A stretch of 64,000 nt of DNA from positions 3,072,001-3,136,000 of the forward strand of contig OY776562.1 in NCBI GenBank assembly GCA_963675785.1. Reading direction: 5' to 3'. The notes below the pieces were generated by a model. That model worked only from the letters and a program-made list of their open reading frames with translations, had not been told where the DNA came from and made no database searches. This DNA comes from Anaerolineae bacterium. GTDB lineage: Bacteria; Chloroflexota; Anaerolineae; UBA1429. Made by a program: the position numbers and the translations under genes. Shown here one piece after another: positions 4,079 to 61,473 of the stretch (the stretch's first letter is position 1; the number at the start of each line of letters is the position of its first letter).

Positions 4079-4154
4079 GCCCACGTAGCTCAGTCGGTAG
4101 AGCACGTTCTTGGTAAGAACGGGGTCACAGGTTCAAATCCCGTCGTGGGCTCCA
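4079..4154 (+). tRNA. tRNA-Thr(GGT)
   Basis: GCCCACG...CGTGGGC-TCCA, anticodon arm CGTTC-TT GGT AA-GAACG. Confidence 0.97.
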
Positions 4155-4216
4155 TTTTTTTGGGTTGAGGCGAATTAGATCCTCAAAGTGCTGGTTTTTA
4201 AGGAGGGTTCTCTAGG

Positions 4217-5419
4217 ATGGCGAAGCAGGTATTCGAGCGTACCAAGCCACACGTAAACATTGGTACGATTGGGCACGTAGACCATGGGAAGACATCACTG
4301 ACAGCGGCGATCACCAAAGTATTGGCGATGAAGGGTGATGCCAAGTTTCAAGCGTATGATCAAATCGACAACGCGCCGGAAGAAAAAGCGCGAGGACTGA
4401 CGATAGCGATTTCGCACGTTGAGTACGAGACAGACAATCGTCATTATGCGCACGTAGACTGCCCGGGTCACGCGGACTATATCAAGAACATGATTACGGG
4501 TGCGGCGCAGATGGACGGAGCGATTCTGGTAGTAAGTGCGCCAGACGGGCCGATGCCACAGACGCGGGAGCACATCTTGCTGGCGAGGCAGGTAGAAGTG
4601 CCGGCGATGGTGGTGTTCTTGAACAAGTGCGACATGATGGATGACGAAGAGTTGTTGGAACTGGTAGAGCTGGAGCTGCGCGAGCTGCTGACGGACTATG
4701 AGTTTCCTGGCGACGACATTCCTATCATTCGCGGGTCAGCGCTGGATGTATTGGAGTGCGAGTCGACAGATATCAACGATCCGATCTATGCGCCGATCTT
4801 GGAGCTGATGGATGCAGTAGACAGCTACATACCGACGCCGGTGCGAGAAGTCGATCGTCCGTTCCTGATGCCGATTGAGGACGTATTTGGGATCAAGGGA
4901 CGCGGCACGGTAGTGACGGGTCGAATTGATCGCGGCATGGTAAAGACTGGTGACACAGTCGAGATCGTGGGTTTGCGAGAAGACATACGTCAGACAGTAG
5001 TGACGGGTGTAGAGATGTTCCGCAAGACACTGCAGCAGGGGCAGGCAGGAGACAACGTAGGTTGTTTGCTGCGCGGCATAGATCGAGAGCAGGTAGAGCG
5101 CGGGCAGGTACTGGCAGCGCCCAAGTCGATCACACCGCATACGACGTTTCGTGGTGAAGTATACGTATTGAAGAAGGAAGAAGGCGGGCGTCACACGCCG
5201 TTCTTTGATGGATATCGTCCGCAGTTCTTTATTCGGACGATGGACGTAACGGGTGAAGTGCGGTTGGACGAAGGCGTAGAGATGGTAATGCCGGGGGACA
5301 ATGCGAACCTGACAGTAGAGTTGATCACGCCGGTGGCGCTGGAGATAGGCTCGCACTTTGCGATTCGAGAGGGCGGCCGCACAGTGGGTTCGGGCGTTCT
5401 CACCAAGATCATCGAGTAA
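4217..5419 (+). CDS. tuf: Elongation factor Tu
   Basis: [27 protein letters not shown] motifs; 400 aa. Confidence 0.99.
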
Positions 5420-5427
5420 GGTGAATC

Positions 5428-5592
5428 ATGGCCAAAAAGGCGAACCGTCTCGTGGTAACATTGGCCTGCACAGAGTGCAAGTCTAGGAACTATACGACTG
5501 AGAAGAACCGCAAGAACGATGCGGGTCGTATGGAATTGTTGAAATACTGCCCCAAGTGCCGTAAGCACACAGAGCACCGAGAGCAGCGTTAA
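5428..5592 (+). CDS. rpmG: 50S ribosomal protein L33 (Zn-binding, 54 aa; absent from the ORF track)
   Basis: Manual translation [54 protein letters not shown]; canonical position after tuf. Confidence 0.97.
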
Positions 5593-5622
5593 GTCGAGAT
5601 TCTGAGTATCGAGTCTCTTTGC

Positions 5623-5695
5623 AGGCGAGTAGCTCAATTGGCAGAGCAACGGTCTCCAAAACCGTAGGTTGCGGGTTCGATTCCTGCCTCGCCTG
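5623..5695 (+). tRNA. tRNA-Trp(CCA)
   Basis: AGGCGAG...CTCGCCT, anticodon arm ACGGT-CT CCA AA-ACCGT; between rpmG and secE. Confidence 0.97.
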
Positions 5696-9151: not shown

Positions 9152-9225
9152 TGGGCAGGATAGGACTCGAACCTACGGCCTCCACGATGTCAACGTGGCG
9201 CTCTAACCAGCTGGGCTACCTGCCC
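9152..9225 (-). tRNA. tRNA-Val(GAC)
   Basis: Minus strand GGGCAGGTAGCCCAGCTGGTTAGAGCG CCACG-TT GAC AT-CGTGG ...GGTTCGAGTCC TATCCTGCCCA; TTGCAA-16-TATAAT promoter at 9237-9264. Confidence 0.96.
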
Positions 9226-11429: not shown

Positions 11430-11729
11430 CTCTGCTTAGAGGGGTTGAACCGTTAAAATACAAGAGTGGAGACCCAATCTCCGATATGGAACAAGTTTGT
11501 ACAGCTGGCTCTGGAGGGCTTCTGGCAAAGGCGCAGACCCTCAAAGTGTCGCATAGCTGTTCATCGCATATTGCGGCATCCGATTTTCTTGTGAGCTGTA
11601 CAGATACTTTGTTCCAAAAAGCACATTTGGCATTCATTCAAAATGGAATAGTACTATTCGAACGGACCATTGCGGACTGTACCAGGGAAAGCATGGTCCG
11701 TTCTGCATTTTTCAAGGGGGAAGATGCTC

Positions 11730-13607
11730 ATGTATTCCTATAGCGGCAGAGTTCTACATGTCGATGTTGGCACGCGTACTTCATGGGTGGAGCAGCTCGA
11801 TGAATCGCTCCTTAAAAAGCTGCTGGGAGGCGTGGGTTTGGCCACCTGGTTGGTTTACAAAAACACGCCCGCTGGTTGTGACCCGCTTGGCCCGGATAAC
11901 GCGCTCTGTTTTGCCTGTAGTGTGTTTGCTGGCACTACTATGCCGGTAGGCACCAAACATGCGGTGGCCAGCAAGTCACCCTTGACGGGTGTCATTGGCG
12001 ATTCGCTCTCTGGCAGCCACTTTTCTGAGGAGCTGCGCCGCGCCGGGTGGGATGGTATTGTCATCAAGGGGCAGGCGCCCGACTGGACCCTTTTGTTCAT
12101 TGATGATGACGATGTTCGCTTTCTCGAAGCTGGTGATTTGGTTGGCATGGGCTGTATGGGCACACAGCAGCGCGTGCGCGACTTGTTCGGCGATGAGAAC
12201 GTACGGGTGAGTTCCATCGGGCCGGCCGGCGAGAATTTGGTGCGTTTTGCTTCGATTGACAATGACGGCCGCCAAGTGGGTCGCACGGGCAATGGCACGG
12301 TGATGGGTAGCAAAAAGATCAAAGCCATTGCTTTGCGAGGCTCCAAGCCTGTCAGCGTGGCTGATCCCAAAGGTTTGCTGGCAGAGACCAAACGGCTCAT
12401 CCAAGTGGCACAAGGCCCGGGCACGTTCAAGTATCGTACGTTAGGTACCCCCGCCAACGTGCTGAATATGAACAAGATCGGCGTACTGCCCACACGAAAC
12501 TTTTCCGAGACGATTTTTGAACACGCCAACGAGATCAGTGGTGAATTCCTCCGCGACCATCTGTTGGTCAAAGAAGTGGCCTGTTCGGGCTGCCCTATCG
12601 CCTGTGAGCATTGGGCCGAGATCAAAGAGGGCCCCTACAAAGGCTCGATGATCGGTGTGGATTACGAACCCCTCTTCTCGCTGGGTTCCAACTGCGGCAT
12701 TGGCGATTTTGGCCCCATTGTGCACCTCATCGAAATGTGCGATGACCTGGGCATGGACGCCATGAGCGCCGGTGTGGTCATTAGTTGGGCTATGGAAGCT
12801 TTTGAACGGGGTGTATTTACTACCGAGGACACTGGCGGCTTGGAACTAAACTTTGGCAACGATGTGGCCGCCGTGGAAATTCTCAGACAAATTGCTTACC
12901 GTGAGGGATTGGGCGATCTATTGGCTGAGGGCGTCAAGCGCGCTTCAGAGCATACGGGCAAGGGCAGTGAGCACTATGCCATGCACATCAAGGGGCTAGA
13001 GATGCCTGGTTACGATGTGCGCAGCCTAAAGACCTTTGCCATGGGCCTGGCTGTGGGCACCCGCGGTGGCTGCCACAATCGCTCTCTGGCTTACGAGGCG
13101 GACATCAAGGGAGAGGTCGACCGTTTTACGGCGGATTCGAGCCGTGGCGCTATTGCCCGCGATAAAGAGAACTTTGCAGCCATCCTCGATTCGCTGGTTT
13201 TGTGCAAGTTCATCCGTAATGCCTTTGATGACTTTTACGAGGATGTGGCCCGCCTCTACAACATGGTCACAGGCCTTGATCTAACGGCGGCAGAGCTCAA
13301 GGCAGTAGGGGAGCGGGTTTGGAATCTGAAAAAGGCCTTTAACATTCGTGAGGGTTGGACGCGCGCTGACGACTGGCTGCCCGATCGTGTGCTCATGGAT
13401 CCGGTTCCTGATGGGCCATCCAAGGGCTCTTTTGTGACGGCGGACGAGCTCAATATGATGATCGATTCGTACTATGTGGCTCGTGGATGGACACCGGAAG
13501 GCTTGATCCCCCGCGAGAAACTGATTGAGTTGGGCCTTGGGGACATAGCCGACGACATTTGCCCAAGTTTGGTGGTAGCACCGGAACCTGCGGTCAAGGA
13601 GGCCTAG
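11730..13607 (+). CDS. aor: Aldehyde:ferredoxin oxidoreductase family (tungstopterin) catalytic subunit
   Basis: KSPLTG, SIGPAGENLVRFASI, GRTGNGTVMGSKKIKAI, CSGCPIAC, DDLGMDAMSAG, RGGCH. Confidence 0.95.
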   Translation: MYSYSGRVLHVDVGTRTSWVEQLDESLLKKLLGGVGLATWLVYKNTPAGCDPLGPDNALCFACSVFAGTTMPVGTKHAVASKSPLTGVIGDSLSGSHFSEELRRAGWDGIVIKGQAPDWTLLFIDDDDVRFLEAGDLVGMGCMGTQQRVRDLFGDENVRVSSIGPAGENLVRFASIDNDGRQVGRTGNGTVMGSKKIKAIALRGSKPVSVADPKGLLAETKRLIQVAQGPGTFKYRTLGTPANVLNMNKIGVLPTRNFSETIFEHANEISGEFLRDHLLVKEVACSGCPIACEHWAEIKEGPYKGSMIGVDYEPLFSLGSNCGIGDFGPIVHLIEMCDDLGMDAMSAGVVISWAMEAFERGVFTTEDTGGLELNFGNDVAAVEILRQIAYREGLGDLLAEGVKRASEHTGKGSEHYAMHIKGLEMPGYDVRSLKTFAMGLAVGTRGGCHNRSLAYEADIKGEVDRFTADSSRGAIARDKENFAAILDSLVLCKFIRNAFDDFYEDVARLYNMVTGLDLTAAELKAVGERVWNLKKAFNIREGWTRADDWLPDRVLMDPVPDGPSKGSFVTADELNMMIDSYYVARGWTPEGLIPREKLIELGLGDIADDICPSLVVAPEPAVKEA

Positions 13608-14128: not shown

Positions 14129-16588
14129 ATGGAAGAACAGATCCGAGTTGGGGTGTATGTTTGCAGTTGTGGTTCAAACATCGGAAGTGTGGTCGACCCC
14201 AAGGTGTTGGCCGAATACGCCAGCGCGTTGCCCGATGTGGTGCTCACCCGTGATAACCTGTACATGTGCGGTGAGCCGGGTCAGAAAATGGTGCAAAAGG
14301 ACATTGTCGAGCACAACCTGAATCGCGTGGTGATTGCGGCCTGCAGTGTGCGCATGCACGAGCCTACTTTTAGGGCTTGCGTGGCCAAGGCGGGGCTCAA
14401 CCCCTTCCTTATGGAGATGGCCAACATCCGCGAGCAGGACACCTGGGTGCACGGCCACGATCATGAGGGAGCCCTGGCCAAGGCCAAGGACCTGATTGCG
14501 GCGGCAGTGGCCAAGGTACGCTATGCCCACCCGCTGCAAACCATCACCGTGCCAGTAACCAAGGCCGCGCTCGTGGTGGGCGGCGGTGTTGCAGGTATTA
14601 GTTCGGCGCTAGACCTCGCCGATATGGGGATCAAGACCTATCTGTTGGAAAGGGAGCTGAGCATTGGCGGCAAGATGGCTCAGCTGAACAAGACCTTTCC
14701 AACGATGGATTGCTCCATTTGAATACTTGCACCAAAGATGGTTGACGCGGCGCGTCACCCCAACATTGAAATACTGAGCTATTCGGAACTACTACGACTT
14801 GACGGCTATATCGGCAATTTCCGCGCCGAGATCGTCCGCAAGCCGCGCTATGTCATTGCGTCCAACTGCACCGGCTGTGGCGAGTGTGCTGAGGCCTGCC
14901 CCATTGAGGTGCCCAACGCCTTTGATGTGGATATTGCCCCGCGCAAAGCCATAGATGTGCCCCATGCCCAGGCGGTGCCGCTCATCTATGCCATTGATAT
15001 GGATAACTGTATCCAGTGCTATCAATGTGTAACGGCCTGTGGCGAGCGTGATGCCATTGATTTCTCTCAGGAACCCGAAATCATCAATCTCGATGTCGGT
15101 GCCATTGTCACTGCTACGGGGTTTGACGTCTTTGATCCACAAGTGATTCCCGAATACGGCTATAGCCACTATCCCAACGTCATCACGGCGATGGAATTGG
15201 AACGACTAGCCAACTCGGCGGGGCCCACGATTGGTCGCCTGGTGCGCCCTTCGGACGGCAAACCACCCGAGAGCCTGGCGTTGGTTCTCTGCGTTGGCTC
15301 GCGTGACAAGCGCTATAACGAATATTGCTCGGGCTTTTGCTGCATGTATTCCATCAAGAACGCCATTCTGCTCAAACAAGCCAACCCCGAGATGGACATC
15401 ACCATCTTTTACATGGATATCCGTACGCCTTCTAAAGGATATGAAGAGTTTTACAATCGCGCCCGAGCTGCTGGCATTCGCTTTGTGCGCGGTCGGCCGG
15501 CTCAGATCACCGAAGATCCCACCACACATAACCTGTTTATTGAGGCCGAGGATCAGGAATTGGGCGAGGTCATTGAACTGGAGACCGAAATGGCCGTTTT
15601 AGCTTCGGCAGCCATTCCATCCGAAGGCACTGATGAGCTAGCTTCTCAACTGACCCTTTCGCGCAGCCCCAGTGGCTTTTTCATGGAGTATCACCCCAAG
15701 CTGCGTCCGGTCGATTCGCCCACGGATGGCATCTTTTTGGCGGGCGCGGCCCAAGGGCCCAAGGACATTCCCGCCAGTGTGGCTCAGGCCAGCGCTGCAG
15801 CCTCACGTGCAGCACGGGTACTTTCTTCAGCTACCTGGGAGATCGAGCCCATCATTGCCGAGGTTGACCCCAAGGTGTGCATCAGCGCCCAGGGCAAAAA
15901 GTGTGGCATTTGCGCTACGGCCTGTCCTTACGGTGCTATCATCGTTGAGCCTGGCCAACCTGCGGTAGTTACCCAAGCCAAATGTCATGGCTGTGGTGGC
16001 TGTGTGGCTGAATGCCCGCACAATGCCATCACCCAGCATCACTTTACCGATCCGCAATTGGCGGCAGAGTTGGAAGCACTGCTCGATGACAAACCAGAAG
16101 AGAAAATTCTGGTGTTCATGTGCAACTGGTGTAGCTATGGCGGTGCTGATAACGCCGGCAGCAGCCACTTTGAATACACTTCGGCTTCACGAGGCCTGCG
16201 GGTGATGTGTTCGGCGCGTATGGATCAGGACTTTATTCTGGAGGCTTTCCGCCGAGGCGCTGGCATGGTACTGGTTTCGGGTTGCCACCCGCAAGACTGC
16301 CACTATATCACTGGCCAGCAAGTAGCGGCCCAGCGTTTTGATCGTATTCCGCGTACACTGGAGCGCGCTGGCATCAACCCCGAGCGTTTCAGAGTGGAGT
16401 GGATTTCGGCGGCCGAGGGCGAAAAGTATGCCCGTGTGCTCAATGAGATGCAGGTCAAACTGGATTCGCTTGACCCCGAGGTGCTGCGGGAAGAGAATCG
16501 TACGGCTGAGCCTTCGTTAACCTCGCGGCTCAAGCGCTGGAAGTTGGTGCCCGAGATGGCCGCTATTCTAGAGGCGACCAAATCATGA
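14129..16588 (+). CDS. hdrA: Heterodisulfide reductase A-like flavoprotein fused to MvhD; selenoprotein (UGA 14720-14722 = Sec), 819 aa
   Basis: ORFs 14129-14722 and 14738-16588 are in the same frame, joined by TFPTMDCSI-TGA-ILAPKM at the HdrA DCxxC/U position. GGGVAG FAD motif, CVGSRD/CSGFCCMY, ferredoxin inserts, C-terminal MvhD (CNWCSY, VMCSAR, GCHPQDCHY). Confidence 0.92.
14740..14759 (+). promoter_or_regulatory. Bacterial SECIS-like hairpin
   Basis: GG-T(bulge)-TGACGC-GGC-GCGTCA-CC; G-rich loop begins 27 nt after the in-frame UGA. Confidence 0.75.
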
Positions 16589-37133: not shown

Positions 37134-37378
37134 AACAAAAAACGTCTCGCCCCAAACTTCAGGGACGAGACGCAATGCTCGCGGTACCACCCCGTTTGAT
37201 TGCTCTATGCTAAAGAGCAACCCACTCGGCCAGCCAGTAACGCGACTGAGACGTCCGGTCATACTCTGTTCTGCCCGGCTGCTCATCGGCCCATTCACCC
37301 GGTACTCGCGGCTCCGTTCGCAGCACAGGGAGCTCTCTTACGCTGTTTGCCAGGCTACTATTCCGAATCAACGCATTG
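37134..37378 (-). ncRNA. T-box riboswitch (Trp specifier)
   Basis: Minus strand: stem I with AGAGA and GAA-TGG specifier (37291-37293), T-box GGGTGGTACCGCG, terminator CGTCTCGTCCC...GGGGCGAGACG-TTTTT; promoter TTGACA-17-TATCAT at 37384-37412. Confidence 0.95.
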
Positions 37379-37447
37379 GCAACATGATACACCCCACAGT
37401 AAAGGGTGTCAAAGTGCTGTCACAGCTGAGAGTGTTAACGTTTCGCC

Positions 37448-52160: not shown

Positions 52161-52172
52161 ATTTCCGAATAG

Positions 52173-52276
52173 CTCTCCGAGTTATGTGGCCTGAGGCCAA
52201 TCCTTTGGGCGGGTATGGCGCATAACCGATGGGTGCGGGTGGAAACGCCCGCGCCTCCCGTGTTTGGAAAGGGGAG
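52173..52276 (+). ncRNA. Moco-family riboswitch lacking P3 (Tuco-type)
   Basis: CTCTCCGAG-TTATGTG..CCTGAGG..TATGG-CGCATAA-CCGAT-GGGTGCGGGT GGAAAC GCCCGCGCC-TCCCGTGTTTGGAAAGGGGAG fits the Moco RNA consensus (CCU.AGG/UAUGG, GAAA loop, CCUCCCG.UUUGGAAAGG). Confidence 0.9.
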
Positions 52277-52294
52277 ACGTTTTCCTGCTCGTTC

Positions 52295-52351: not shown

Positions 52352-53710
52352 TTGACGGAAGAAAAACGTTACTATTTTACCACGCGGGACTTGCTTATTA
52401 TGGCCGCCATGGCTGGCCTGGGTGGTGTGGCTAGTACGGCAATCAATGCGCTTGGTGATGTGATGCAGGCAGCCTTGGGTTTTGCTGGCACTACGCAGTG
52501 GGCCGCCGGTCTTCACACAATCTTTTTGCTTCTTGTTGTGGGGCTGGTTCGTAAAGGCGGTGCAGCTACATTGGCCGGATTGCTCAAGGGGGCCGTTGAG
52601 CTGCTCAGTGGCAACACCCACGGCATTATTATTCTATTGGTTGATTTAGCAGCTGGATTGATCATCGATTTGGTTTTTGCCCTGGTACAGCAGCGCCAAA
52701 GCCTATTGGTTTATATACTGGCTGGTGCATTTTCGGCGGCCAGTAACGTCATTGTTTTTCAATTGTTTGCTCTGGCGCCGGAAGATGTCCTTGCAGCTGT
52801 CTGGCTGGTGGCCCTGGTTGCAGCGGTTTCGGGCGCACTGCTAGGCGGTTGGGTTGCATGGTTGCTGCTGGGTGTGCTTCACAAGAATGGTCTGGTTCGA
52901 GAGGAGCCGGTGCGTACCATGCGCGGCTGGCGCTATGCTGTGTTTCTAGGCGTTTTTGCGCTGATTCTCATTGGCGGGAGCTGGACCATGGTGGAATCCT
53001 TGGCTGGGCCGCCGGTGATCGATATTCGTGTGGATGGCGAGGTGGTCTACCAATTTTCGCCCGATGACGACAACCTACCTCTCATTGTCGAAGATGTCGA
53101 ACTGAACGGCATCAAACGTAGTGTAAGCGGCTATAAATTGGCCGAGGTCATTGCTTTGGCTGTCAGTGGTACGGAATATGGCTCGGCGCTAATCTCTGCC
53201 ACGGATGGCTATTCCTTTTTCATTACTGATCGCGAGATTGAGGAAAACACAGAGCTGCTGTTGGCAGTGAGCGGCGAGGGTGAGGACACCAGTTACGAGA
53301 TCGTCGGTGCCGAGAACTCGAAAGCCTGGGTGCGTAACGTAGCTACCATTGATCTGGCCGAACAAACGCTCATCGAGGTGTCGGGCTTGATTGGTCTGCC
53401 CTCACCCTACAATCCCGCTGACTGGCAATACGAGATGGACAGTGCCTATCTGGATGTGGGGTATGGCGAGCAAAAATACCAGGGAACTATTGCCGCCGAT
53501 GTGCTGACAGCCTGGGAACCTTCAACAGGCGCAGAATCGGCCGTATTTTACAGTGCGGATGAACAGGTTGAACTAAGCCTGGAAGAGATTGCCACGGATC
53601 GCAGCTTGCGCATTTGGTCGGTCAATGCTGCTGGTGGAACCAGTTTTGCTCTGGCCACTGAAGGTGGCGAGATATTGTTGACCGACGTCGAACGTATCGA
53701 GGTCAAATGA
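52352..53710 (+). CDS. ECF transporter S component (YkoE-like) fused to two extracytoplasmic molybdopterin-oxidoreductase-like domains
   Basis: N-terminal ~185 aa hydrophobic (FTTRDLLIMA...VRKGGAATL), extra TM, then repeats G.kL..v...SATDGYS...WVRNV..I and YQG....vL...LTDVERIEV. Confidence 0.8.
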   Translation: MTEEKRYYFTTRDLLIMAAMAGLGGVASTAINALGDVMQAALGFAGTTQWAAGLHTIFLLLVVGLVRKGGAATLAGLLKGAVELLSGNTHGIIILLVDLAAGLIIDLVFALVQQRQSLLVYILAGAFSAASNVIVFQLFALAPEDVLAAVWLVALVAAVSGALLGGWVAWLLLGVLHKNGLVREEPVRTMRGWRYAVFLGVFALILIGGSWTMVESLAGPPVIDIRVDGEVVYQFSPDDDNLPLIVEDVELNGIKRSVSGYKLAEVIALAVSGTEYGSALISATDGYSFFITDREIEENTELLLAVSGEGEDTSYEIVGAENSKAWVRNVATIDLAEQTLIEVSGLIGLPSPYNPADWQYEMDSAYLDVGYGEQKYQGTIAADVLTAWEPSTGAESAVFYSADEQVELSLEEIATDRSLRIWSVNAAGGTSFALATEGGEILLTDVERIEVK

Positions 53711-53713
53711 ACT

Positions 53714-55162
53714 GTGTCTGAGCCGATGGTGCGCATCGACCAGCTCTCTTTTCGCTATGCAGCTGGTGAAACGCTGGCCCTCGATCATGTTTCGCTGGCG
53801 GTCGACAAGGGCGAGTTTGTGGTGTTGACCGGACCAAGCGGCTGCGGCAAGTCGACGTTGGCACTAGCCATGGGCGGTTACCTGGCGCATCAATTCAAAG
53901 GAGAGTTCGAGGGCACTGTTGAGGTGGCCGACGTCGATACGCTCCGAGAGCCGCTTTATCAGGTGGCGGACGTGGTCGGTTTGGTGCAGCAGAACCCGGA
54001 GGATCAGTTTTGCACCTTGCGGGTGGACGATGAGGTGGCCTTTGGTCCAGAGAATCGTTGTGTAGAGCCACTGATGATTCGCCAACTTGAGCAGAATTCG
54101 TTGATGAGGGCTCAAGCTCAGCATCTTGAGGGTCGTCTGCTGGATTCGCTCTCTGGCGGTGAAAAGCAACGGGTGGCTCTGGCGTCTATGCTGGCTGGCA
54201 CGCCGCAATTGTTGATTTTGGACGAGCCCACATCCAGCCTCGACCCTCAGGCTACACAGGATGTGTTGGCAGTATTGGATAATCTTCGTCGCGAGCGTGG
54301 CCTGACTCTGATCGTCATCGAACACAAATTGGATGCCCTGATGCGCTTTAATCCGCGTATTGTGCGTATGGCCCAGGGGCACATCGAACAAGATCATTCT
54401 GTTTTTCAGCCAACTGTACCCGTAGTTCATGCACCCTCAATGGCAGGTAAGGTTGCTGTGGCACTAGAGGGCGTCTCCGTCACTCTAGAAGATCATCACG
54501 CACTCGATAACGTAACTGTAGATTTTCACTCTGGCCAGTTGACTGCTCTGATGGGAGCCAATGGTGCTGGCAAGACCACACTCTTGCGGGTCATCCGCGG
54601 TTTACAGCCTGTGCGGAGAGGTTGTGTTTGTGTGTTAGGTCAGGATGTTGCCAAGGATACTGTGTCAGCTCTAGCCGGGCGCGTGGGGTTTATGTTTCAG
54701 AATCCCGATCACCAGTTGCTAAGCGATACGGTGCAAGGTGACATGGCTTTTGGTCTATCTGCCCAGCAGGTCACCCAAGATGCACTTTATCATCAGCAAT
54801 TGCTTGAATTGGCTGGTCTTTGGGAGCTGCGCAATAGACACCCCTTTTCTCTGAGCTATGGGCAAAAGAGGCGTCTGAATCTGTCTTCACTGTTGGCGCA
54901 AAAACCGCAGATCATTCTGGTTGACGAACCGCTCATTGGGCAGGACCCTAACAACGCCCAGTATGTCATGGGGGTGCTCAGGGCCGCTGCGGATGAAGGC
55001 GTTTGTGTGATCGCGGCACTTCATGCCCCGGGGATGGTTCAGCGCTTTGCAGACAGGGTTGTGTTTTTGGCTCAGGGGCGTATCGATATCGATGCGGCAC
55101 CGGATGCTGCCTTTGCCGCATTGTCTTCCTCCGGGCGCAAAGCTTTTGCAGGTATGTTATGA
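53714..55162 (+). CDS. ECF transporter tandem ATPase (A-A' fusion)
   Basis: GPSGCGKST / LSGGEKQR / DEPT and GANGAGKTT / LSYGQKRR / DEP; QNP Q-loops. Confidence 0.92.
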   Translation: MSEPMVRIDQLSFRYAAGETLALDHVSLAVDKGEFVVLTGPSGCGKSTLALAMGGYLAHQFKGEFEGTVEVADVDTLREPLYQVADVVGLVQQNPEDQFCTLRVDDEVAFGPENRCVEPLMIRQLEQNSLMRAQAQHLEGRLLDSLSGGEKQRVALASMLAGTPQLLILDEPTSSLDPQATQDVLAVLDNLRRERGLTLIVIEHKLDALMRFNPRIVRMAQGHIEQDHSVFQPTVPVVHAPSMAGKVAVALEGVSVTLEDHHALDNVTVDFHSGQLTALMGANGAGKTTLLRVIRGLQPVRRGCVCVLGQDVAKDTVSALAGRVGFMFQNPDHQLLSDTVQGDMAFGLSAQQVTQDALYHQQLLELAGLWELRNRHPFSLSYGQKRRLNLSSLLAQKPQIILVDEPLIGQDPNNAQYVMGVLRAAADEGVCVIAALHAPGMVQRFADRVVFLAQGRIDIDAAPDAAFAALSSSGRKAFAGML

Positions 55163-55911
55163 CAGCCAGCATGAGCCGTCTCGGAGTGGTTGGGCGCATT
55201 CATCCCTTACCCAAATTTGCCTGGCTCCTGGCTGTTTCGGTGGCCGTGTTTGTGGTGGGCCAACCGGTGGTTATTTGGGCCATCGTCCTAGGGCTCGTAC
55301 TGGTGGGTTATCCTTATCTGGTCGGTAGGTCGCGTGCGTTCCGCCTGACTATATTCTCTACGTTGGGACTTTTTCTGCTGCAGGCGCTATTTTACCACCA
55401 GGGACGGGTGCTGTTCGATCTGTGGCCGGGAGAGGCGCAATGGTCGGTGACAGTAGACGGTCTGCTACGCGGACTGCGTGTATCGGGTCGCTTTCTCGCC
55501 ATTATACTGGCCAGCCAGGTGTTTGTAGGGTCGACAGACTCTAGCGAACTGGCCTACAGCCTGATGCAGGCTGGCGTTCCCTATCGATTTGGCTTTGCGC
55601 TTGTCTCAGCCCTGCGTATGACGCCTATGTTTCGCAGTGAGGGTCGTACAGTGTACGAAGCTCAACTTTGCCGAGGCGTGGCGCTGGATCGCGGTGGCTT
55701 GCGTGGCCTTTTGGTTAGGCTGCAGCGCTTTTTGTTGCCGCTGGTGGTATCTGCTCTCAGAAGGGTCGATAGCCTGTCCATCTCGATGGAAGGCCGACAC
55801 TTTGGGCGTTATCGAACCCGAACCTTTGCACAACCTTTGCATCACCACCGCAGAGACTACGCGGTCTGGGGGTTATTGATTTTTTTCATCGCCATCATCG
55901 TCGTCCTGTAG
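55159..55911 (+). CDS. ecfT: ECF transporter transmembrane component T
   Basis: HPLPK, ALRM.P, EAQLCRG, SMEGRHF coupling-helix motifs; ATGA overlap. Confidence 0.9.
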   Translation: MTASMSRLGVVGRIHPLPKFAWLLAVSVAVFVVGQPVVIWAIVLGLVLVGYPYLVGRSRAFRLTIFSTLGLFLLQALFYHQGRVLFDLWPGEAQWSVTVDGLLRGLRVSGRFLAIILASQVFVGSTDSSELAYSLMQAGVPYRFGFALVSALRMTPMFRSEGRTVYEAQLCRGVALDRGGLRGLLVRLQRFLLPLVVSALRRVDSLSISMEGRHFGRYRTRTFAQPLHHHRRDYAVWGLLIFFIAIIVVL

Positions 55912-55921
55912 GTGGGCCAAT

Positions 55922-57844
55922 ATGTGGAACGAGTTTCTGTACAGTATCGCGACCTATCCCTACCTCTATGCACTGTTCACTGGCGTTATGCTCCTGTGGA
56001 TCACTGTAGGGCTACACGCCCTACGTCGTGTGCGGCAGGCGCCTGACGAGCGACCACGCCTCACCTTCAAAAAATTTGGCGCTGCATTCCAAGAAGCGTT
56101 GGTTCAACGGCGCATCTGGCGGAGGCCTCTGGCCGGTGCGATGCACCTCTGCCTGTTTGCCGCAGGGGTGCTCATTCTGGTGGCCTATATTATGACTCAC
56201 CATGTTGCCCCTCGTGGCGAGGCTTGGCAGGCCAGCCGCACTGCACATTTCATTGCTGATTTGGGCGTAATGCTAGGTTTTGTTGGACATATGCTGGCGG
56301 GCTGGCGACGTTTTATTCGCAAAGAGACCTCTCGCGCCTTTAGCGATGTGCTGTTGTGGGGCTTGGGCTTTGTGTTCATCATCGCCTATGGCCTGGCTAA
56401 TGCGTTACAGGTGGCCATCACCGATCCAAATTGGCAGCGTGCGGCCTTTTTGAGCCGCCCGATAGCTGGGCTTTTCTCAGGCATGGCGACTCTTACACTG
56501 CGCTCACTTTACGGGTTAGTTTGGGCTCTTGTCCACGGCTCTTTGTTCGTAGGCGTTTTGCTGGTACCCCTGACCAAGTGGCGCCACGTTTTGGCAATCG
56601 TAGTCAACCTTGCGCATGCGGACGATCTTCCGCCAGCAGTAGCTGTCTCCGAGGATCTGAATGGTGATGGGCCCTTTGGTCTGGGGCGAACGGATCAGCT
56701 CAGCAAGAAGCAACTCTACGAAACCTGGGCTTGCGTTCGTTGTGGGCGTTGTAGCACGGTCTGTCCGGCAACGATGACTGGCAAGATGCTTGATCCGCTC
56801 AAACTGATAGAGGCCGAGCTGGAAGCCCCAAGGATGGCCAGCTTACCCGACTTTATCGATCAGGAGGCACTTTGGCAGTGCAGCATGTGCCTGGCCTGCG
56901 CGGATGTATGCCCTGCGGATATTGCCCCCTGGCGCCATTTACTGGATATGCGTCGCGAGCGCGTGCTGGAGGCGGCCGAGTTTCCCCAAGAGCTTCAAGG
57001 CGTTTTTCGCGGCATAGAGCGGCGCGGCAACCCGTGGGGCACGGCTACCAACAAGAGCGAAATCGCTCGTGAAGCAGGTGTGCGCCTATTATCCAAAGGC
57101 GATTCTTGCGATGTGTTGCTGTGGATGGGCTGTATGGTGGCGGTGGACCCACTGGCACAGCAGGCCTGGCGGGCTATGGCGCAGTTGTTGGCAGCGGCCG
57201 ACGTCGATGTGGCTTGCCTGGGCGATGCCGAGCCCTGCTGCGGCGATGCAGCACGCCGTCTAGGCAATGAGTACATCTGGCAGCAACAGGTGGAGACCGT
57301 GAGTGATGCCATGCATGATATTCATGTGGGACGGGTTGTCTCAGTTTGCCCACATTGCGCTAACACTTTGGGCAACGAGTATCCGCAGGGACTTTGGCAG
57401 GGCGTGTCTCACGCTCTTGAAGAATTGAGCTGTCTGGCCCAGGAGGGGCGTATCGTCCCCGAGGCACATCAGGTCAAGCCCTGTCGTGTGGTTTACCATG
57501 ATCCTTGCTATTTGGCGCGCGGCCTTGACGTCATTGATTCTGTGCGCCGACTGCTTGTTGCCACGCCAGGTTGCGAACTAGTCGAGCCTGCGCACAAGGG
57601 CAAGGATGTGTGGTGTTGCGGTGCGGGCGGCGGCCAGATGTGGCTTCAAGAGGATGACGGTGCGGCTTTGGGCCAGTCACTCTTTGATGAACTGGCCAAT
57701 ACCAAGGCCGAACTAATACTCTCTGCATGTCCTTATTGTGATACGACACTGCAATCTGAGTTTGGCAATACGAACGATGTAAGTGATGTGGTGATTTTTA
57801 TCGCCAATCGATGGCGTGCTAGTGACAGGAGTGATCAAGGGTGA
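55922..57844 (+). CDS. Membrane Fe-S oxidoreductase (NarI-like TM + 2[4Fe-4S] + two CCG domains; HdrD/HdrF/FadF-like)
   Basis: TM His residues (AMHL, LVHG, KWRH), CVRCGRCSTVCP, CSMCLACADVCP, CCGD, CPHC, YHDPCYL, CCGAGGG, ACPYC. Confidence 0.88.
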   Translation: MWNEFLYSIATYPYLYALFTGVMLLWITVGLHALRRVRQAPDERPRLTFKKFGAAFQEALVQRRIWRRPLAGAMHLCLFAAGVLILVAYIMTHHVAPRGEAWQASRTAHFIADLGVMLGFVGHMLAGWRRFIRKETSRAFSDVLLWGLGFVFIIAYGLANALQVAITDPNWQRAAFLSRPIAGLFSGMATLTLRSLYGLVWALVHGSLFVGVLLVPLTKWRHVLAIVVNLAHADDLPPAVAVSEDLNGDGPFGLGRTDQLSKKQLYETWACVRCGRCSTVCPATMTGKMLDPLKLIEAELEAPRMASLPDFIDQEALWQCSMCLACADVCPADIAPWRHLLDMRRERVLEAAEFPQELQGVFRGIERRGNPWGTATNKSEIAREAGVRLLSKGDSCDVLLWMGCMVAVDPLAQQAWRAMAQLLAAADVDVACLGDAEPCCGDAARRLGNEYIWQQQVETVSDAMHDIHVGRVVSVCPHCANTLGNEYPQGLWQGVSHALEELSCLAQEGRIVPEAHQVKPCRVVYHDPCYLARGLDVIDSVRRLLVATPGCELVEPAHKGKDVWCCGAGGGQMWLQEDDGAALGQSLFDELANTKAELILSACPYCDTTLQSEFGNTNDVSDVVIFIANRWRASDRSDQG

Positions 57845-58689
57845 GCAAGCGATGGACGTGGCTCCTCGTCGGGGCCATTGGTGTTGTAATCGGTATCGGT
57901 TTGGCCAGCTGGAAGACCTTTCCCATCGAGGATATGATTGCACGAACTACTTGCGCTGAATGTCATGATGTGCACGGGGCTCTCGAAATTGCCCAAGTTC
58001 CAGCTCAGAGCCAGGTCTGGATCTTGGGCGATGTGCCGGAATCCACTTATTTCTTTGTAAATGATCTTTTTCCTCTTGCAGACGAGACGGAGGGTACGAG
58101 TATTTCACTCATCGACTTGTTGGCCGATTATGGGGTGACGGATTGGGAAAAGGTCTCAATTGAATCCCTCGATGGCGGACTGGTAACGCTGGAGCGCCAG
58201 TATGTCACGGAGAATTCCCTTCTTGTGCCCTATGTCGATGGCATTCGCTTCAAGGATGTCAATCTGCACGAATCCACCTGGCTCAAGGGTGTACGCTTTA
58301 TCACTGTACAGGGCAGCGAGACGCCCCTGCTTCTCGGAGATACGCAGACTTCGTTAGGGCGTTTGCTGATGGGTGATCGCACAGCCGTTATAGCCGAAGC
58401 CAGTGATGCGCTATATTCCAGTCCTGTGGACGGACAGATTTACCAGGGTAACTATGCGCACATTTACACTGGCGCGTCGCTTGTTTCACTGTTGACGGCT
58501 TACCCAGAGGCAACTACTTTTGCCTGCACCAGCCAGGATAGCGAGACGGTATCATACACACGTGAGGAACTACAAGAGGCTGTCATTGCGCCGGTATCTG
58601 GTTTGCCTTCGCTGGTGCTGCCGCAGTATGGTCAGGGGAGCTGGGTCATTGGGATTGAGAGCATTGTGCCAGAGGATGGGGAGAGTTGA
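57841..58689 (+). CDS. Membrane-anchored protein with single CxxCH and two molybdopterin-oxidoreductase-like domains
   Basis: N-terminal TM, CAECH, SLIDLL..ESLDG...WLKGVRFI and YTGASL...SQD...WVIGIESI. Confidence 0.65.
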   Translation: MSKRWTWLLVGAIGVVIGIGLASWKTFPIEDMIARTTCAECHDVHGALEIAQVPAQSQVWILGDVPESTYFFVNDLFPLADETEGTSISLIDLLADYGVTDWEKVSIESLDGGLVTLERQYVTENSLLVPYVDGIRFKDVNLHESTWLKGVRFITVQGSETPLLLGDTQTSLGRLLMGDRTAVIAEASDALYSSPVDGQIYQGNYAHIYTGASLVSLLTAYPEATTFACTSQDSETVSYTREELQEAVIAPVSGLPSLVLPQYGQGSWVIGIESIVPEDGES

Positions 58690-58690: not shown

Positions 58691-59824
58691 ATGTTGCGAG
58701 TGAAGAGATTGGGGGCATTGCCAAGTGCGCTACTGGCGATAGCCCTAGTTGCGGGTTGTTCGCCCAGGTGGGAGATTGGACTGACCATTGATGGGGATGT
58801 ACGTTCACCGCTTACTGGCCAGCAATGGAGCACGGCACTAGAAAGTTATCCGGATGAATGCGTTGAAGATAGTGTTCCCCTGGAACGGCTTTTATCCATG
58901 GCTTCTGTTCCGGCGGTAGAGTCAGTAAGCGTAGACGACCAATCATGGTATTGGGCCGATGTGTATGACGATGCCTGGGTAGAAAAGGGCGGTACGCTGG
59001 TCATCGCTGGTGAAAGCATAGAGACAAAAGATATTAGCATCGTTTTGCCGACACTTGATGCTTCGGTAACAGTTGAGCTGATAGATATTGCTCCCACAAT
59101 TGCTGGCGCGTTGGGAGTTCGTTCGCCGGAGGATACTGAGGGCCGTGCTGTAGCAGCTTTTGACGCCGAACATGTCGTCCATATTTTTTTGGATGGCTTT
59201 GGCTATGAGAACTATCAATCGGTTGTAGGTACGCGCACTACATCCTTTCTAGACAGCCTGGGCGCTCCGCGTATTGCCCGAACAGTTTACCCTAGTGCGA
59301 CCAAGGCCTCGACGGCCGCGATGATTACCGGCGCTTCGCCCACGGTGAATGGTGTTTCTTCTGGTGAACTGCGCACCACCGAAAGCGAGACGATCTTTCA
59401 GGTTCTGACTGAGGCAGGGCTTTCTAGTGTGGCCGTGGAAGGTTCATCTTTGGCTTTCAATCTGGTCTCGACAGAGATCATTGTCTCGGGTGACCGCGAC
59501 GATGACGGCTATTCGGACGACAATACTTATGAGAATGCCCTCGAAGTGATGAACGAGGGATTGCCCGATTTCCTCTGGGTGCATTTTCATGGAATCGACG
59601 ATGCTGGGCACACGTACGGTCCGTTAGCTGACGAGACGCTGGCTATGATGACACGCGTGGATGGCTATGTTTCTGATATCGTACAGCGATTACCCGAGGG
59701 AACTCTGGTGATCATTTGCGCCGATCATGGAATGCACGATGTGGTAGAAGATGGCCGTCTGGGGAACCACGGTTCCCTCTTGTCTCAGGATATGTATATT
59801 CCCTTCTGGACGATTCAACTCTGA
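58691..59824 (+). CDS. Alkaline-phosphatase-superfamily (NPP-like) lipoprotein
   Basis: Lipobox VAGC, FLDGFG, YPSATKAS (Thr nucleophile), DDAGH, ADHG, GNHG. Confidence 0.82.
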   Translation: MLRVKRLGALPSALLAIALVAGCSPRWEIGLTIDGDVRSPLTGQQWSTALESYPDECVEDSVPLERLLSMASVPAVESVSVDDQSWYWADVYDDAWVEKGGTLVIAGESIETKDISIVLPTLDASVTVELIDIAPTIAGALGVRSPEDTEGRAVAAFDAEHVVHIFLDGFGYENYQSVVGTRTTSFLDSLGAPRIARTVYPSATKASTAAMITGASPTVNGVSSGELRTTESETIFQVLTEAGLSSVAVEGSSLAFNLVSTEIIVSGDRDDDGYSDDNTYENALEVMNEGLPDFLWVHFHGIDDAGHTYGPLADETLAMMTRVDGYVSDIVQRLPEGTLVIICADHGMHDVVEDGRLGNHGSLLSQDMYIPFWTIQL

Positions 59825-59832
59825 GTATAATG

Positions 59833-59876
59833 AAAGGGCGGGGAAGAGATTGGCCTCTTCCCCGCCCTTTTTTTTA
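59833..59876. terminator. Bidirectional terminator between the two riboswitch-led units
   Basis: AAAGGGCGGGGAAGAG-ATTGGC-CTCTTCCCCGCCCTTT-TTTTT. Confidence 0.88.
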
Positions 59877-60353
59877 TTCGACGACTTCGATACTCGTGAG
59901 TTTGTATAGCCAGCCATCGGCTGGTAGGTTGGGTATTACAACGCGAATAGGGGCGGTCTTGGTGTCGTCAGTGGTATAGACGCCATCCCTCTTCAAAGCG
60001 ATGATAGCCTGATCAAGATCCGAGATATTGACCTCCTTGGCATAGCCATCAGAGGCGGTGAGCAAGAGGCTGACGGCATTTTCACTCATGCCGGCTTCTT
60101 CCAAAATAGCCATCAGGTCGGGGCCTTCCCATGTGTTGGTCTCATTTTCGCCTTGCGACTTGCGCATGAGGACATTTTCGAGCACTACCTGATCCCGCTC
60201 AGTGAGATCCTGGTATGAGAGCGTAAGAGGCGTTTCTACGGCTCCAGTGATTTCTAGGTTCCAATCAACTTTGGGGGCACCATTACCGCAGCCTGTGGCA
60301 ACCAGCATGACGATGACAATAGCAACTACCATGGTAAGCGAGCGTTTTCTCAT
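59874..60353 (-). CDS. Lipoprotein with a single molybdopterin-oxidoreductase-like domain
   Basis: Lipobox ATGC, WNLEITGAV, WEGPDL, TASDGY, PIRVVIP, WLYKLTSIEV; ATG 60353 behind AAAGGA. Confidence 0.82.
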   Translation of the reverse strand: MRKRSLTMVVAIVIVMLVATGCGNGAPKVDWNLEITGAVETPLTLSYQDLTERDQVVLENVLMRKSQGENETNTWEGPDLMAILEEAGMSENAVSLLLTASDGYAKEVNISDLDQAIIALKRDGVYTTDDTKTAPIRVVIPNLPADGWLYKLTSIEVVE

Positions 60354-60447
60354 TTTGATCCTTTCGATATAGGAAGAATGCTCGCTCATGTCCGCCGTCG
60401 TGTTTGTACACAACAACACACAGCACGATTTTCGTGCTGCGATTGCG

Positions 60448-60575
60448 GTTCTCCTTTCCAAACACGGGCGGCATGAGCGTTTCCACTCAGACCGTTCGCC
60501 GGGCAATTGTGGTTGCCTGGCTGCGATCGCAGACCCTAGAGTTTTCTGTTCCGTAGGCCGTGCGATTCGGAGAAC
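60448..60575 (-). ncRNA. Moco-family riboswitch with P3 (Moco-type)
   Basis: Minus strand GTTCTCCGAA-TCGCA..CCTACGG..TAGG..TGCGA-[P3]-TGAGT GGAAAC GCTCA-TGCCGCCCGTGTTTGGAAAGGAGAAC; P1 GTTCTCC/GGAGAAC. Confidence 0.85.
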
Positions 60576-60593
60576 AGTCTATTCACTAGGGCT

Positions 60594-60622
60594 ATTCTAA
60601 ACCATGGATTCTGTCTCGGCAA
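60594..60622 (-). promoter_or_regulatory. Sigma70 promoter upstream of the second Moco riboswitch
   Basis: TTGCCG-17 nt-TAGAAT, about 18 nt before P1. Confidence 0.6.
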
Positions 60623-60708
60623 CTTGGATTGCCATCTGGCGAACGGTGACGTAAGATAAACGAGCTATTTGGTTGACCGGGTCGCGTTATGTTTGCTTGA
60701 GGTGAAAA

Positions 60709-61473
60709 ATGATTTTGGATAAATTCAATCTGACGGGCAAGGTTGCTCTCGTTACGGGGGCAAGTCGGGGTTTGGGCCAGGGGATGGCCGTAGGATTGGC
60801 TGAAGCTGGCGCCGATGTGGTTGGTGTTGCGCGTAGTTCGTGCGACGAAACAGCCAAGCAGATCGAGGCACTGGGCAGACGTTTTCTACACATCCCTTTT
60901 GATTTGGCCTTGGCCAGTGTCCTAGATTTGAATGGCCTTGTTGACCAGGTTGTAGATGAGATGGGGGCTCTCAATATTTTGGTGAACGCCGCCGGCGTAA
61001 CAGCGCGTCATCCTTCGCTAGAATACCCTGAGGATGACTGGGACTTTGTGATGCAAGTCAACCTCAAAGCCTTGATGTTTCTTTCACAGGCAGCGGCCCG
61101 ACATTTCGTCAAGATCGGCGGTGGCAAGATCGTCAATGTAGCCTCGGCCTTGTCATTTCAAGGGGGGTATCTGGTGCCTTCTTATGCGGCCTCCAAGCAT
61201 GGTGTAGCGGGTGTTACCAAGGCTTTGGCCAACGAATTTGCTTCGATGAACATCAACGTGAATGCTATTGCTCCGGGCTATATGTTGACGGATATGACAG
61301 CACCGATTGAGGCTGACCCTGTGCGGAATCCCCAGATTATGGTGCGCATTCCAGCGGGTCGCTGGGGCTCGCCCGAAGATCTCAAAGGTGCAGTAGTTTA
61401 CCTTGCTTCGGATGCATCTGCCTATTGCCACGGCTCTACACTGGTAGTGGATGGCGCCTGGCTGAATCGCTAG
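60709..61473 (+). CDS. kduD: 2-dehydro-3-deoxy-D-gluconate 5-dehydrogenase (SDR)
   Basis: TGASRGLG, LSFQGG..VPSYAASK, NAIAPGY, RIPAGRWG, VDGAWL. Confidence 0.85.
   Translation: MILDKFNLTGKVALVTGASRGLGQGMAVGLAEAGADVVGVARSSCDETAKQIEALGRRFLHIPFDLALASVLDLNGLVDQVVDEMGALNILVNAAGVTARHPSLEYPEDDWDFVMQVNLKALMFLSQAAARHFVKIGGGKIVNVASALSFQGGYLVPSYAASKHGVAGVTKALANEFASMNINVNAIAPGYMLTDMTAPIEADPVRNPQIMVRIPAGRWGSPEDLKGAVVYLASDASAYCHGSTLVVDGAWLNR

Follow-up and report, generated by a model that had tools for sequence, protein, structure and literature searches.

Two types of the Moco RNA motif (Rfam family RF01055) are distinguished, one with and one without a helix called P3, and whether P3 decides between the molybdenum cofactor (Moco) and its tungsten counterpart (Tuco) is a question that was posed in 2008 (Regulski et al., PMC2408646). 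A 64,000-nucleotide stretch of an Anaerolineae genome (GenBank assembly GCA_963675785.1, contig OY776562.1, positions 3,072,001 to 3,136,000; hereafter the window) raises that question again together with a second one. The stretch carries both types: RS1, which lacks P3, stands ahead of an operon for an energy-coupling factor (ECF) importer, and RS2, which contains P3 and is read from the minus strand, stands ahead of a gene for a 159-aa lipoprotein (P0001). What do the importer and the lipoprotein handle, and do the two RNAs report on different cofactors? The first question is answered here, with moderate confidence, by reading the locus as a salvage and import system for a molybdopterin-type cofactor, either ready-made Moco or Tuco or metal-free molybdopterin.

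The two aptamers and the hairpin by which they differ are located as follows.

60436 to 60584, minus strand: RS2, Moco RNA motif aptamer of the P3-containing type (RF01055 match above the gathering threshold)
60496 to 60526, minus strand: P3 hairpin of RS2, 8 bp with one A/C mismatch and a 6-nt loop (folding and comparison)
52163 to 52290, plus strand: RS1, Moco RNA motif aptamer of the P3-less type, with a strong terminator downstream (RF01055, 73.0 bits)

RS2 truly belongs to the Moco/Tuco riboswitch class, in its P3-containing form. In an Rfam cmscan of the full window it scored 60.0 bits against a gathering threshold of 36 (E 6.7e-12), and RS1 reached an E-value of 1e-15. When RS2 was rescanned locally (E 4.7e-14) the match covered positions 1-135 of the 135 in the model, with a 19-nt insertion in the P3 hairpin; in the alignment of RS1 the P3 columns of the model are deleted. 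The covariance alignment of both RNAs thus bears out the original prediction, made from the letters of the stretch, that RS2 is a second, P3-containing riboswitch of the Moco type. The limits given there (60448-60575) mark the right element and are slightly narrower than the Rfam match, and the core motifs named there were all found in place: CUCCGA at 60572-60567, CCUACGG at 60557-60551, GGAAAC at 60484-60479 and CCCGUGUUUGGAAAGG at 60468-60453. The insert of the P3 region, which spans 60526 to about 60496, folds at -12.0 kcal/mol; shuffled sequences gave -3.8 +/- 2.1, and 1 in 200 of them attained the observed energy. In 10 of 10 P3-containing relatives a hairpin unrelated in sequence occupies the same place, between P2 and P4, and a consensus fold of 13 leaders from this gene cluster (RNAalifold) recovered P1, P2, P4 and P5 with compensatory changes at 18 of the 32 pairs. 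RS2 has the GAAA loop on P4, and its receptor-like bases in P2 read CCUACG...UAGGG against the usual CCUAAG...UAUGG. A match to the Chloroflexus-1 sRNA over 60360-60467 was dismissed as chance (15.9 bits, gathering threshold 181.5).

The gene behind RS2 encodes a protein related in fold to the Moco domain of sulfite oxidase (SUOX) enzymes and to the pterin-binding protein PruR, and its transcription unit ends at a hairpin.

59874 to 60353, minus strand: 159-aa lipoprotein P0001, Cys-less SUOX/PruR-like fold (PF00174, lipobox, AlphaFold2 (AF2) model, Foldseek)
59832 to 59871, either strand: 17-bp G+C-rich hairpin with T-runs on both sides, a bidirectional terminator between the convergent lipoprotein gene and the ECF operon

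RS2 leads a single gene, which runs from the ATG at 60353 to the stop codon at 59874 and is followed by the 17-bp terminator hairpin that it has in common with the end of the ECF operon; the earlier statement that this RNA controls one lipoprotein holds. The N-terminus of P0001 consists of a basic and a hydrophobic stretch followed by ...A-T-G-C, with Cys22 as the lipobox cysteine (read from the sequence). This is a Sec-type lipoprotein signal without a twin-arginine motif, and the mature protein of about 137 residues has no redox partner domain. P0001 scores 53.8 bits with PF00174, the Moco domain of SUOX enzymes, and reaches the Pfam cut-off. Its relatives in a large protein collection number 44 among 88 candidates, all of about 160 aa and several named from Anaerolineae, and 31 of them were aligned, the other 13 having been dropped for lower coverage, odd length or very short contigs. 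The lipobox cysteine is the only invariant Cys in the alignment (31/31) and no other cysteine is conserved; D102-G103-Y104, R137 and W148 are invariant, as is the hairpin tip M63-x-x-S66-x-G68-E69. The position of the Mo-ligand Cys corresponds to K65/S66, judged by eye against the Cys-bearing SUOX paralog of the same genome.

An AF2 model of P0001 built on the 31-homolog alignment (pLDDT 85.6) places two 10-residue strands at 55-64 and 70-79. Its best Foldseek matches are SorA (E 7e-9), SoxC, YedY and nitrate reductase, and at its own size the best match is PruR (7kom, TM 0.75 by target). A profile of the family found SorA at 1e-7 and PruR (7kos) at 7.7e-6 among PDB sequences. P0001 is treated here as a separate branch of Cys-less SUOX-fold binding proteins, and not as an ortholog of PruR. 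Periplasmic Moco enzymes are exported folded and loaded with cofactor through the twin-arginine translocation (Tat) pathway, and since P0001 lacks the motif that export in the loaded state needs, it would meet its ligand only outside the cell.

These properties bear on the idea that P0001 is itself a surface oxidoreductase which uses Moco with a non-cysteine ligand, the riboswitch matching its expression to cofactor supply. Such an enzyme would account for the Pfam cut-off being reached and for the long beta-hairpin whose invariant M-x-x-S-x-G-E tip stands at the place of the Cys in SUOX enzymes, and P3-containing Moco RNAs have been reported ahead of genes for Moco-using enzymes (PMC2408646). 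The idea is nevertheless very unlikely: a Cys ligand is missing from 31 of 31 aligned homologs, the signal is of the Sec type where a loaded Moco enzyme would leave by Tat, a mature chain of this size has no redox partner domain, and the protein co-occurs tightly with ECF genes and is found within their operons. An exported, Cys-bearing SUOX lipoprotein does occur in the host genome, with 213 aa, VLVCPG at the ligand position and a Sec-type signal (L005 1264-1905; G000:C1:1011750-1012391). If this protein is a Moco enzyme it would need loading outside the cell, because it has no Tat signal and no Moco synthesis was detected.

The operon behind RS1 converges on the gene for P0001 and is composed as follows.

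52352 to 53710, plus strand: ECF S component (PF09819) with an extracytoplasmic fusion of about 240 aa that has a SUOX/PruR-like fold (Pfam, AF2, Foldseek)
53714 to 55162, plus strand: fused double ECF ATPase, A-A' (TIGR04520, 330.8 bits, cut-off 315)
55003 to 55911, plus strand: ECF T component (CbiQ), whose actual start codon probably lies after 55003 (PF02361, 79.6 bits)
55922 to 57844, plus strand: membrane Fe-S protein with Fer4 and two CCG domains (in 2 of 12 related loci)
57841 to 58689, plus strand: membrane-anchored protein of 282 aa that matches no family and has a CxxCH motif (in 10 of 12 related loci)
58691 to 59824, plus strand: lipoprotein with a type I phosphodiesterase/nucleotide pyrophosphatase domain (PF01663, 66.4 bits; in 9 of 12 loci)

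The S component is 452 aa long (PF09819, 59.7 bits), and an AF2 model of its last 241 residues (212-452; pLDDT 87.1, from 14 orthologs) matches SorA, YedY and PruR in Foldseek (7kom, TM 0.68 by target), so that the transporter itself appears to display a SUOX/PruR-like fold on the outside. The fold relation between this ectodomain and the lipoprotein rests on the structure model, because comparison at the level of sequence and profile is weak: BLASTP of P0001 against the S component and against the 282-aa protein gave nothing significant, and likeness to the P0001 profile is weak for the S component (probability 9%), the 282-aa protein (50%) and the pyrophosphatase lipoprotein (24%). A complex prediction for the S ectodomain and the mature lipoprotein scored 0.00, which is no answer and speaks neither for nor against an interaction. 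The lipobox of the pyrophosphatase lipoprotein is LVAGC, as read from its translation.

The tie between P0001 and the importer was followed through a class sample of 301 Anaerolineae genomes, 19 of which, the present one included, have the long S component. ECF loci were extended in 14 cases, 2 of them ending at a contig edge, and in all 12 informative loci the order S-AA'-T is kept and a homolog of the 159-aa lipoprotein lies beside these genes, on the same strand behind them in 7 and convergent in 5. Strong matches to the lipoprotein profile (E <= 1e-30) are present in 23 of the 301 genomes, that is in 19/19 ECF-positive and 4/282 ECF-negative ones. Of 18 orthologous loci, 16 have RF01055 ahead of the S gene; one of the two misses is at a contig end, and in the other the leader stands further upstream. 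RF01055 also occurs on the split lipoprotein units of related clusters. A third RF01055 copy in the host genome, with a 5-bp P3 (73.9 bits; G000:C1:851663-851798, L004 2663-2798), leads a 136-aa lipoprotein (L004 2824-3234) that is a paralog of P0001 (hhalign probability 98.8%, E 4.4e-17), so that all three Moco RNAs of this genome would belong to one system; in G255 and G064 the two RNAs of the ECF cluster are the only Moco RNAs of the genome. Synteny, co-occurrence and the shared extracytoplasmic fold lend good support to the view that P0001 belongs functionally to the adjacent RS1-controlled ECF module, where it would act as an accessory receptor on the outer face of an importer of the YkoEDC type.

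What such an importer would carry is suggested by the cofactor genes of the host, whose genome is available as a single 3.22-Mb contig (94.8% complete). In this genome family searches detected none of MoaC, MoeA_N, the MoaA C-domain and MoaE, each of which matched 11 of 14 control genomes. Two candidates were rejected: the sole match to MoCF_biosynth is a CinA protein, and the matches to SBP_bac_11 (PF13531), by which a ModA-type binding protein was sought, are tandem PstS proteins. The genome has three genes for tungsten-type enzymes of the aldehyde ferredoxin oxidoreductase (AOR) family (AFOR_N), one of them in the window at 11670-13607 (+), one protein of the dimethyl sulfoxide (DMSO)/selenate-reductase family, and a MobA-like guanylyltransferase of 213 aa whose best matches are all MobA models, below their cut-offs. 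No riboswitch precedes the AOR genes of the host, unlike those in related genomes. Salvage usually shows in a genome as this combination, in which users of the cofactor and a late tailoring enzyme are present and the early pathway is missing, and the host would need an importer, because it has AOR, DMSO-reductase-family and MobA-like genes but none of the four synthesis and insertion markers was found.

The class sample points in the same direction. MoaC is unmatched in 33 of the 301 genomes, 13 of which were identified by elimination, and these make up 10/19 of the ECF-positive and 23/282 of the ECF-negative genomes. Within the host's own family, the two MoaC-less genomes are the two with the ECF cluster, and all nine with MoaC (9/9) are without it. 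Every ECF-positive, MoaC-negative genome has AOR genes, between 3 and 14 of them (10/10), and MoeA_N is also absent from 7 of these 10 and kept in 3. Among the 33 MoaC-unmatched genomes, the cluster is present in 7 of the 9 that have AOR but neither MoaC nor MoeA_N, and in none of the three that lack MoaC, MoeA_N and AOR.

An importer of the metal is a rival to cofactor salvage. According to this explanation the ECF cluster and its lipoproteins import molybdate and/or tungstate, and the SUOX-fold domains bind an oxyanion instead of a pterin cofactor. Riboswitches of the Moco class commonly control molybdate/tungstate transporters (PMC2408646), no ModA-type binding protein was found in the host genome (the PF13531 matches being PstS), and MoaC matches do occur in nine ECF-positive genomes (7 full, 2 partial). 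Against this, neither MoaC nor MoeA_N was found in the host and 6 other ECF-positive genomes, nor were the MoaA C-domain and MoaE in the host, and metal alone would be unusable where these are missing. The known ligands of the fold, moreover, are Moco and free pterins, and ECF importers of the YkoEDC-type architecture are known as transporters of vitamins and vitamin precursors. Import of the oxyanion is thus improbable, and the ligand is more likely a pterin cofactor than molybdate, given the PruR/SUOX Moco fold and the four Moco-synthesis markers that were not found. The capture role that had been proposed for the lipoprotein is kept, with such a cofactor as the more likely ligand.

Salvage of a molybdopterin-type cofactor could then proceed along the following lines. 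The ECF cluster, the pyrophosphatase lipoprotein and the protein with the haem-type CxxCH motif would together capture, trim and import ready-made Mo/W cofactor or metal-free molybdopterin. Dinucleotide forms might be cut back by the surface pyrophosphatase before they are taken up and be restored by MobA within the cell, and the cofactor pool of the cell would shut the import system off through the riboswitches.

Several observations weigh against this account. The seven ECF-positive genomes with a full MoaC, beside the two with a partial match, imply that the system also occurs outside auxotrophs. MoeA_N is retained in three ECF-positive genomes that have no MoaC match, and import of the metal-free pterin fits better there than import of finished cofactor. 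Two genomes, G094 and G185, have AOR and lack MoaC and MoeA_N and show no ECF cluster, both being fragmented assemblies; the relatives are in general mostly incomplete metagenome bins, and related genomes are non-independent samples. Moco is reportedly unstable when free of protein (PMC9026282). The MobA-like and DMSO-reductase-family proteins of the host score below the curated NCBIfam cut-offs, and binding, transport and regulation by the cluster are predicted from comparison and from folds. RNA evidence consists of one 185-nt metatranscriptome contig inside the lipoprotein reading frame (59964-60143, 3 differences), from a single RNA run among 20 runs, in which the leader of RS2 is not covered; three further runs contain the stretch in long contigs, possibly including source DNA.

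With the locus read as a cofactor importer, the second question is whether RS1 and RS2 tell Moco from Tuco. The original prediction had a Mo-responsive lipoprotein feeding a W-responsive ECF module; the link between lipoprotein and ECF module stands (12/12 loci, 19/19 genomes, shared fold), and the assignment to Mo and W is not established, the ECF leaders being mixed and the pair reversed in one genome. Among the orthologous ECF leaders 13/17 are P3-less and 4/17 contain P3. Eight split clusters have both leaders typed. The ECF leader is P3-less and the lipoprotein leader P3-containing in five of them, namely this genome, G064, G017, G255 and G176, from three families; both leaders are P3-less in two, G218 (by sequence) and G289 (by length only); and the pair is reversed in one, G098, with a P3-containing ECF leader and a P3-less lipoprotein leader (G098:C557:4722-4919 and 16202-16323; L010, L114). 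The ECF leader of G098 also has a large P2 insertion made of a direct repeat. The two types differ elsewhere too: P3-containing RNAs have AACGG at the base of P4 and GCC(C/G)CCC, and P3-less ones mostly (U/C)AGGG and GCCUCCC, which fits two tuned cores and would go beyond the difference in the hairpin.

A census of RF01055 in 22 related genomes gives a similarly mixed picture. It examined 40 loci outside the clusters, with P3 typed by eye and the genes named through Pfam from the first sizeable downstream reading frame as chosen by a script; one partial and four sub-cut-off matches were left out, and four AOR-adjacent matches were judged from coordinates only. P3-less leaders precede genes for AOR (4), ferredoxin partners (4), MoaA (3) and xanthine-dehydrogenase-family proteins (3 loci), as well as ABC permeases, Peripla_BP_2 fusions and others. 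The seven P3-containing leaders precede genes for a MogA-like protein, an ABC permease, an AOR, two SUOX-fold proteins, an NTPase and an unnamed reading frame. From this census and from the mixed types of the split clusters it follows that the P3 rule of 2008 holds only loosely in this clade.

The census also brought to light RNAs and genes that are of interest in their own right. A compact Moco RNA variant of about 112 nt, with a GCAA, GUAA or AGAU loop replacing GAAA and the core CCUCCGA...GCAAAGGAGG, recurs directly upstream of AOR genes and of genes for their 4Fe-4S partners, at the following sites.

L095-L097, L101-L104 and L111: compact variant sites
G293:C5:42574-42686: compact variant site
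G176:C10:25896-26007: compact variant site
G176:C43:11665-11775: compact variant site
G098:C445:5222-5333: compact variant site

Large Peripla_BP_2 proteins stand behind Moco RNAs at L081, L086, L087, L089 and L090 (genomes G178, G028 and G069), with an Oxidored_molyb domain in 2 of the 5, and may represent a second, ABC-type route for the same ligand. At L080 (G134:C1:340538-343200) a P3-less Moco RNA lies 310 nt upstream of a gene for an aldehyde dehydrogenase of the NAD type (PF00171), which is a counterpart of AOR that does not depend on the cofactor; provided that the link is real, this gene may be switched the opposite way.

What competes with a division of labour between the two RNAs, and leaves cofactor salvage as such untouched, is that RS1 and RS2 sense the same ligand or ligands and that P3 tunes folding, affinity or kinetics. 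The mixture of types among the ECF leaders agrees with a single ligand, and so do the reversed pair of G098, the two P3-less leaders of G218 and G289, the P3-less RNAs ahead of xanthine-dehydrogenase-family genes (3 loci) with one P3-containing RNA ahead of an AOR gene, and a single leader common to lipoproteins and ECF genes in 7 genomes. It sits less well with the differences in the core sequences, with the recurrence of the pair of P3-less ECF leader and P3-containing lipoprotein leader in 5 genomes of 3 families, and with the place of P3-less RNAs as the usual leaders of AOR genes (4 AOR and 4 ferredoxin-partner genes by Pfam, 4 more by coordinates), which agrees with what is reported in PMC2408646. 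On balance a common ligand has a probability only a little short of even, and real discrimination between Moco and Tuco by the RS1/RS2 pair is possible, if doubtful. Unlikely, though worth stating, is a fuller version in which neither cofactor is made and both are imported: the P3-less leader would meter the Tuco pool and govern the shared ECF pump, with the fused domains handling Tuco, and the P3-containing leaders would meter the Moco pool and govern detachable PruR-like lipoproteins that pass Moco to the same pump, a two-channel design of sensors and receptors that would separate near-identical cofactors.

The way in which RS2 might act on its gene can be read from the leader, in which the following elements were recognised.

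60594 to 60622, minus strand: promoter-like pair, -35 TTGCCG, 17 nt, -10 TAGAAT (consensus scan, 9/12 matches)
60406 to 60441, minus strand: hairpin resembling a terminator (10 bp, 60441-60419), its U-rich tail interrupted by G (fold and terminator scan)
60335 to 60405, minus strand: putative translation-initiation region with alternative pairings (minimum free energy (MFE) folds)

The promoter-like pair ends 10 nt upstream of the aptamer, and the consensus scan found 2 such sites where 1.1 +/- 1.1 were expected, a number not above chance, so that the promoter is merely a hint; of the earlier claim that RS2 has its own promoter there remains a suitable site just upstream. The same intergenic region holds a divergent promoter-like site at 60629-60657 (+) and, at 60709-61473 (+), a gene for a KduD-type short-chain dehydrogenase, for which no link to the cofactor system was seen at the locus.

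By analogy with the leader of E. coli moaA, RS2 is inferred to be an OFF switch; repression of that leader by Moco was shown by Regulski et al. in 2008 (PMC2408646). When successive transcript lengths were folded, the Rfam-like aptamer was the minimum-energy structure of the transcript ending at 60419, and once the segment 60405-60383 was included its pairing with the 3' half of the aptamer (60477-60458) broke P1, P4 and P5. In the same MFE folds, 60390-60382 can pair with 60343-60335, enclosing the anti-Shine-Dalgarno-like UUCUUCCU (60375-60368), the Shine-Dalgarno sequence AAGGA (60363-60359) and the AUG (60353). A classical antiterminator was sought in RS2 and no clear one was found, aptamer and terminator hairpin coexisting in the folds of successive length; clear terminators, each made of a stem and UUUUU, are present in the orthologous leaders of the lipoprotein genes in G064, G017, G255 and G176. 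It is proposed that RS2 may act mainly on translation, perhaps with partial termination. Ligand would stabilise P1 and leave the downstream leader free for the terminator-like hairpin and for a helix in which Shine-Dalgarno sequence and start codon are hidden, and without ligand the 3' half of the aptamer would pair instead with the downstream leader. The poor tail of the RS2 terminator and the want of a clear antiterminator count against this scheme, whose steps are modelled from MFE folds.

The remainder of the window holds more ordinary elements, among them a T-box leader at 37158-37380 (-; 115 bits), a SAM-I riboswitch at 3531-3641 (-; 95.5 bits) and five tRNA genes, at 3823-5695 and 9152-9225.

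According to a 2021 review, Moco must be made de novo and only Caenorhabditis elegans is known to take it up (PMC9026282). A search of the titles and abstracts of open papers and preprints found no description of a bacterial Moco or Tuco importer or of an ECF operon behind a Moco riboswitch. RS2 as such is a new member of a known riboswitch family; what is new here is the recurring pair of P3-containing and P3-less RNAs in one cluster, the assignment of the lipoproteins to a PruR-like kind, the four missing synthesis and insertion markers beside AOR, DMSO-reductase-family and MobA-like genes, and the co-occurrence counts. If the salvage reading is true, a riboswitch-controlled bacterial cofactor importer would overturn the de-novo-only view for a group of environmental anaerobes, would explain how organisms with many AOR genes live with no detectable cofactor pathway, and would suggest that members of sludge and sediment communities cross-feed cofactor. 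For the question of P3, both RNA types lie 8 kb apart in what appears to be one functional unit, in a host apparently unable to synthesise or interconvert the ligands, and they offer matched natural sequences for swaps; the comparison also carries the warning that a simple P3 rule is not clean in this clade.

Among known systems, the RF01055 leader of E. coli moaA (PMC2408646) resembles RS2 in P1, P2, P4 and P5, in the GAAA tetraloop and core, and in belonging to the P3-containing subclass. Organisms carrying both RNA types were already noted by Regulski et al. in 2008, Table 1 of that paper naming several (PMC2408646), and the host genome likewise has a second, P3-less copy. RS2 differs from the known examples in that it leads no gene for Moco synthesis, for a molybdate/tungstate ABC transporter or for a Moco enzyme; it leads a Cys-less SUOX-fold lipoprotein of an ECF cluster, in a genome without a detected cofactor pathway, and the bases of its P2 tetraloop receptor (CCUACG...UAGGG) deviate from the consensus.

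The closest relative of P0001 in size and fold is PruR, a periplasmic pterin-binding protein of Agrobacterium tumefaciens and other Proteobacteria (PDB 7kou, 7kos, 7kom, 7kp2 and 7rkb; PMC11194511). PruR is described as a secreted SUOX-fold protein without the Mo-ligand Cys, in which the pterin is stacked between a Tyr and a Trp, a Pro-Trp motif takes the former Cys position, the hairpin is truncated, and the operon partner is a GGDEF-EAL protein of the DcpA type (PMC11194511). P0001 is likewise small, secreted and almost nothing but SUOX fold, lacks the Mo-ligand Cys, and keeps the Tyr of (N/D)-x-Y and the C-terminal Trp, these being matched by motif and position only; the likeness in sequence is weak (profile E 7.7e-6). 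It differs in having an invariant M-x-x-S-x-G-E tip in place of Pro-Trp, with the long hairpin apparently retained, in its neighbours, which are the ECF operon and the KduD-type dehydrogenase and include no DcpA-type partner, and in being lipid-anchored, controlled by a Moco riboswitch and tied to an importer instead of to c-di-GMP signalling. This comparison also bears on whether P0001 is a PruR-like signalling receptor for excreted pterins that feeds no transporter. Size, fold and loss of the Cys are as in PruR; the missing GGDEF-EAL partner beside the gene, the missing Pro-Trp motif, the Moco-class riboswitch and the embedding in ECF operons all count against such a receptor, and leave it only a slender chance.

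Dedicated (group I) ECF importers of the YkoEDC type, such as the hydroxymethylpyrimidine/thiamine system of Bacillus subtilis under a thiamine pyrophosphate riboswitch, provide the model for the transporter, and ECF importers normally work without external binding proteins. The host operon has the same plan, a PF09819 S component, a fused double ATPase and a CbiQ-type T component behind a cofactor riboswitch. It departs from this plan in the S component, which is longer by about 240 extracytoplasmic residues of SUOX/PruR-like fold, and in that lipoprotein receptors, a surface lipoprotein of the pyrophosphatase type and a CxxCH protein are added. The nearest physiological parallel is the uptake of dietary Moco by C. 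elegans and Haemonchus contortus, which likewise rely on ready-made cofactor from outside (PMC9026282). Those are animals for which no transporter is known, whereas the present locus would provide a bacterial, genetically defined and riboswitch-controlled candidate importer.

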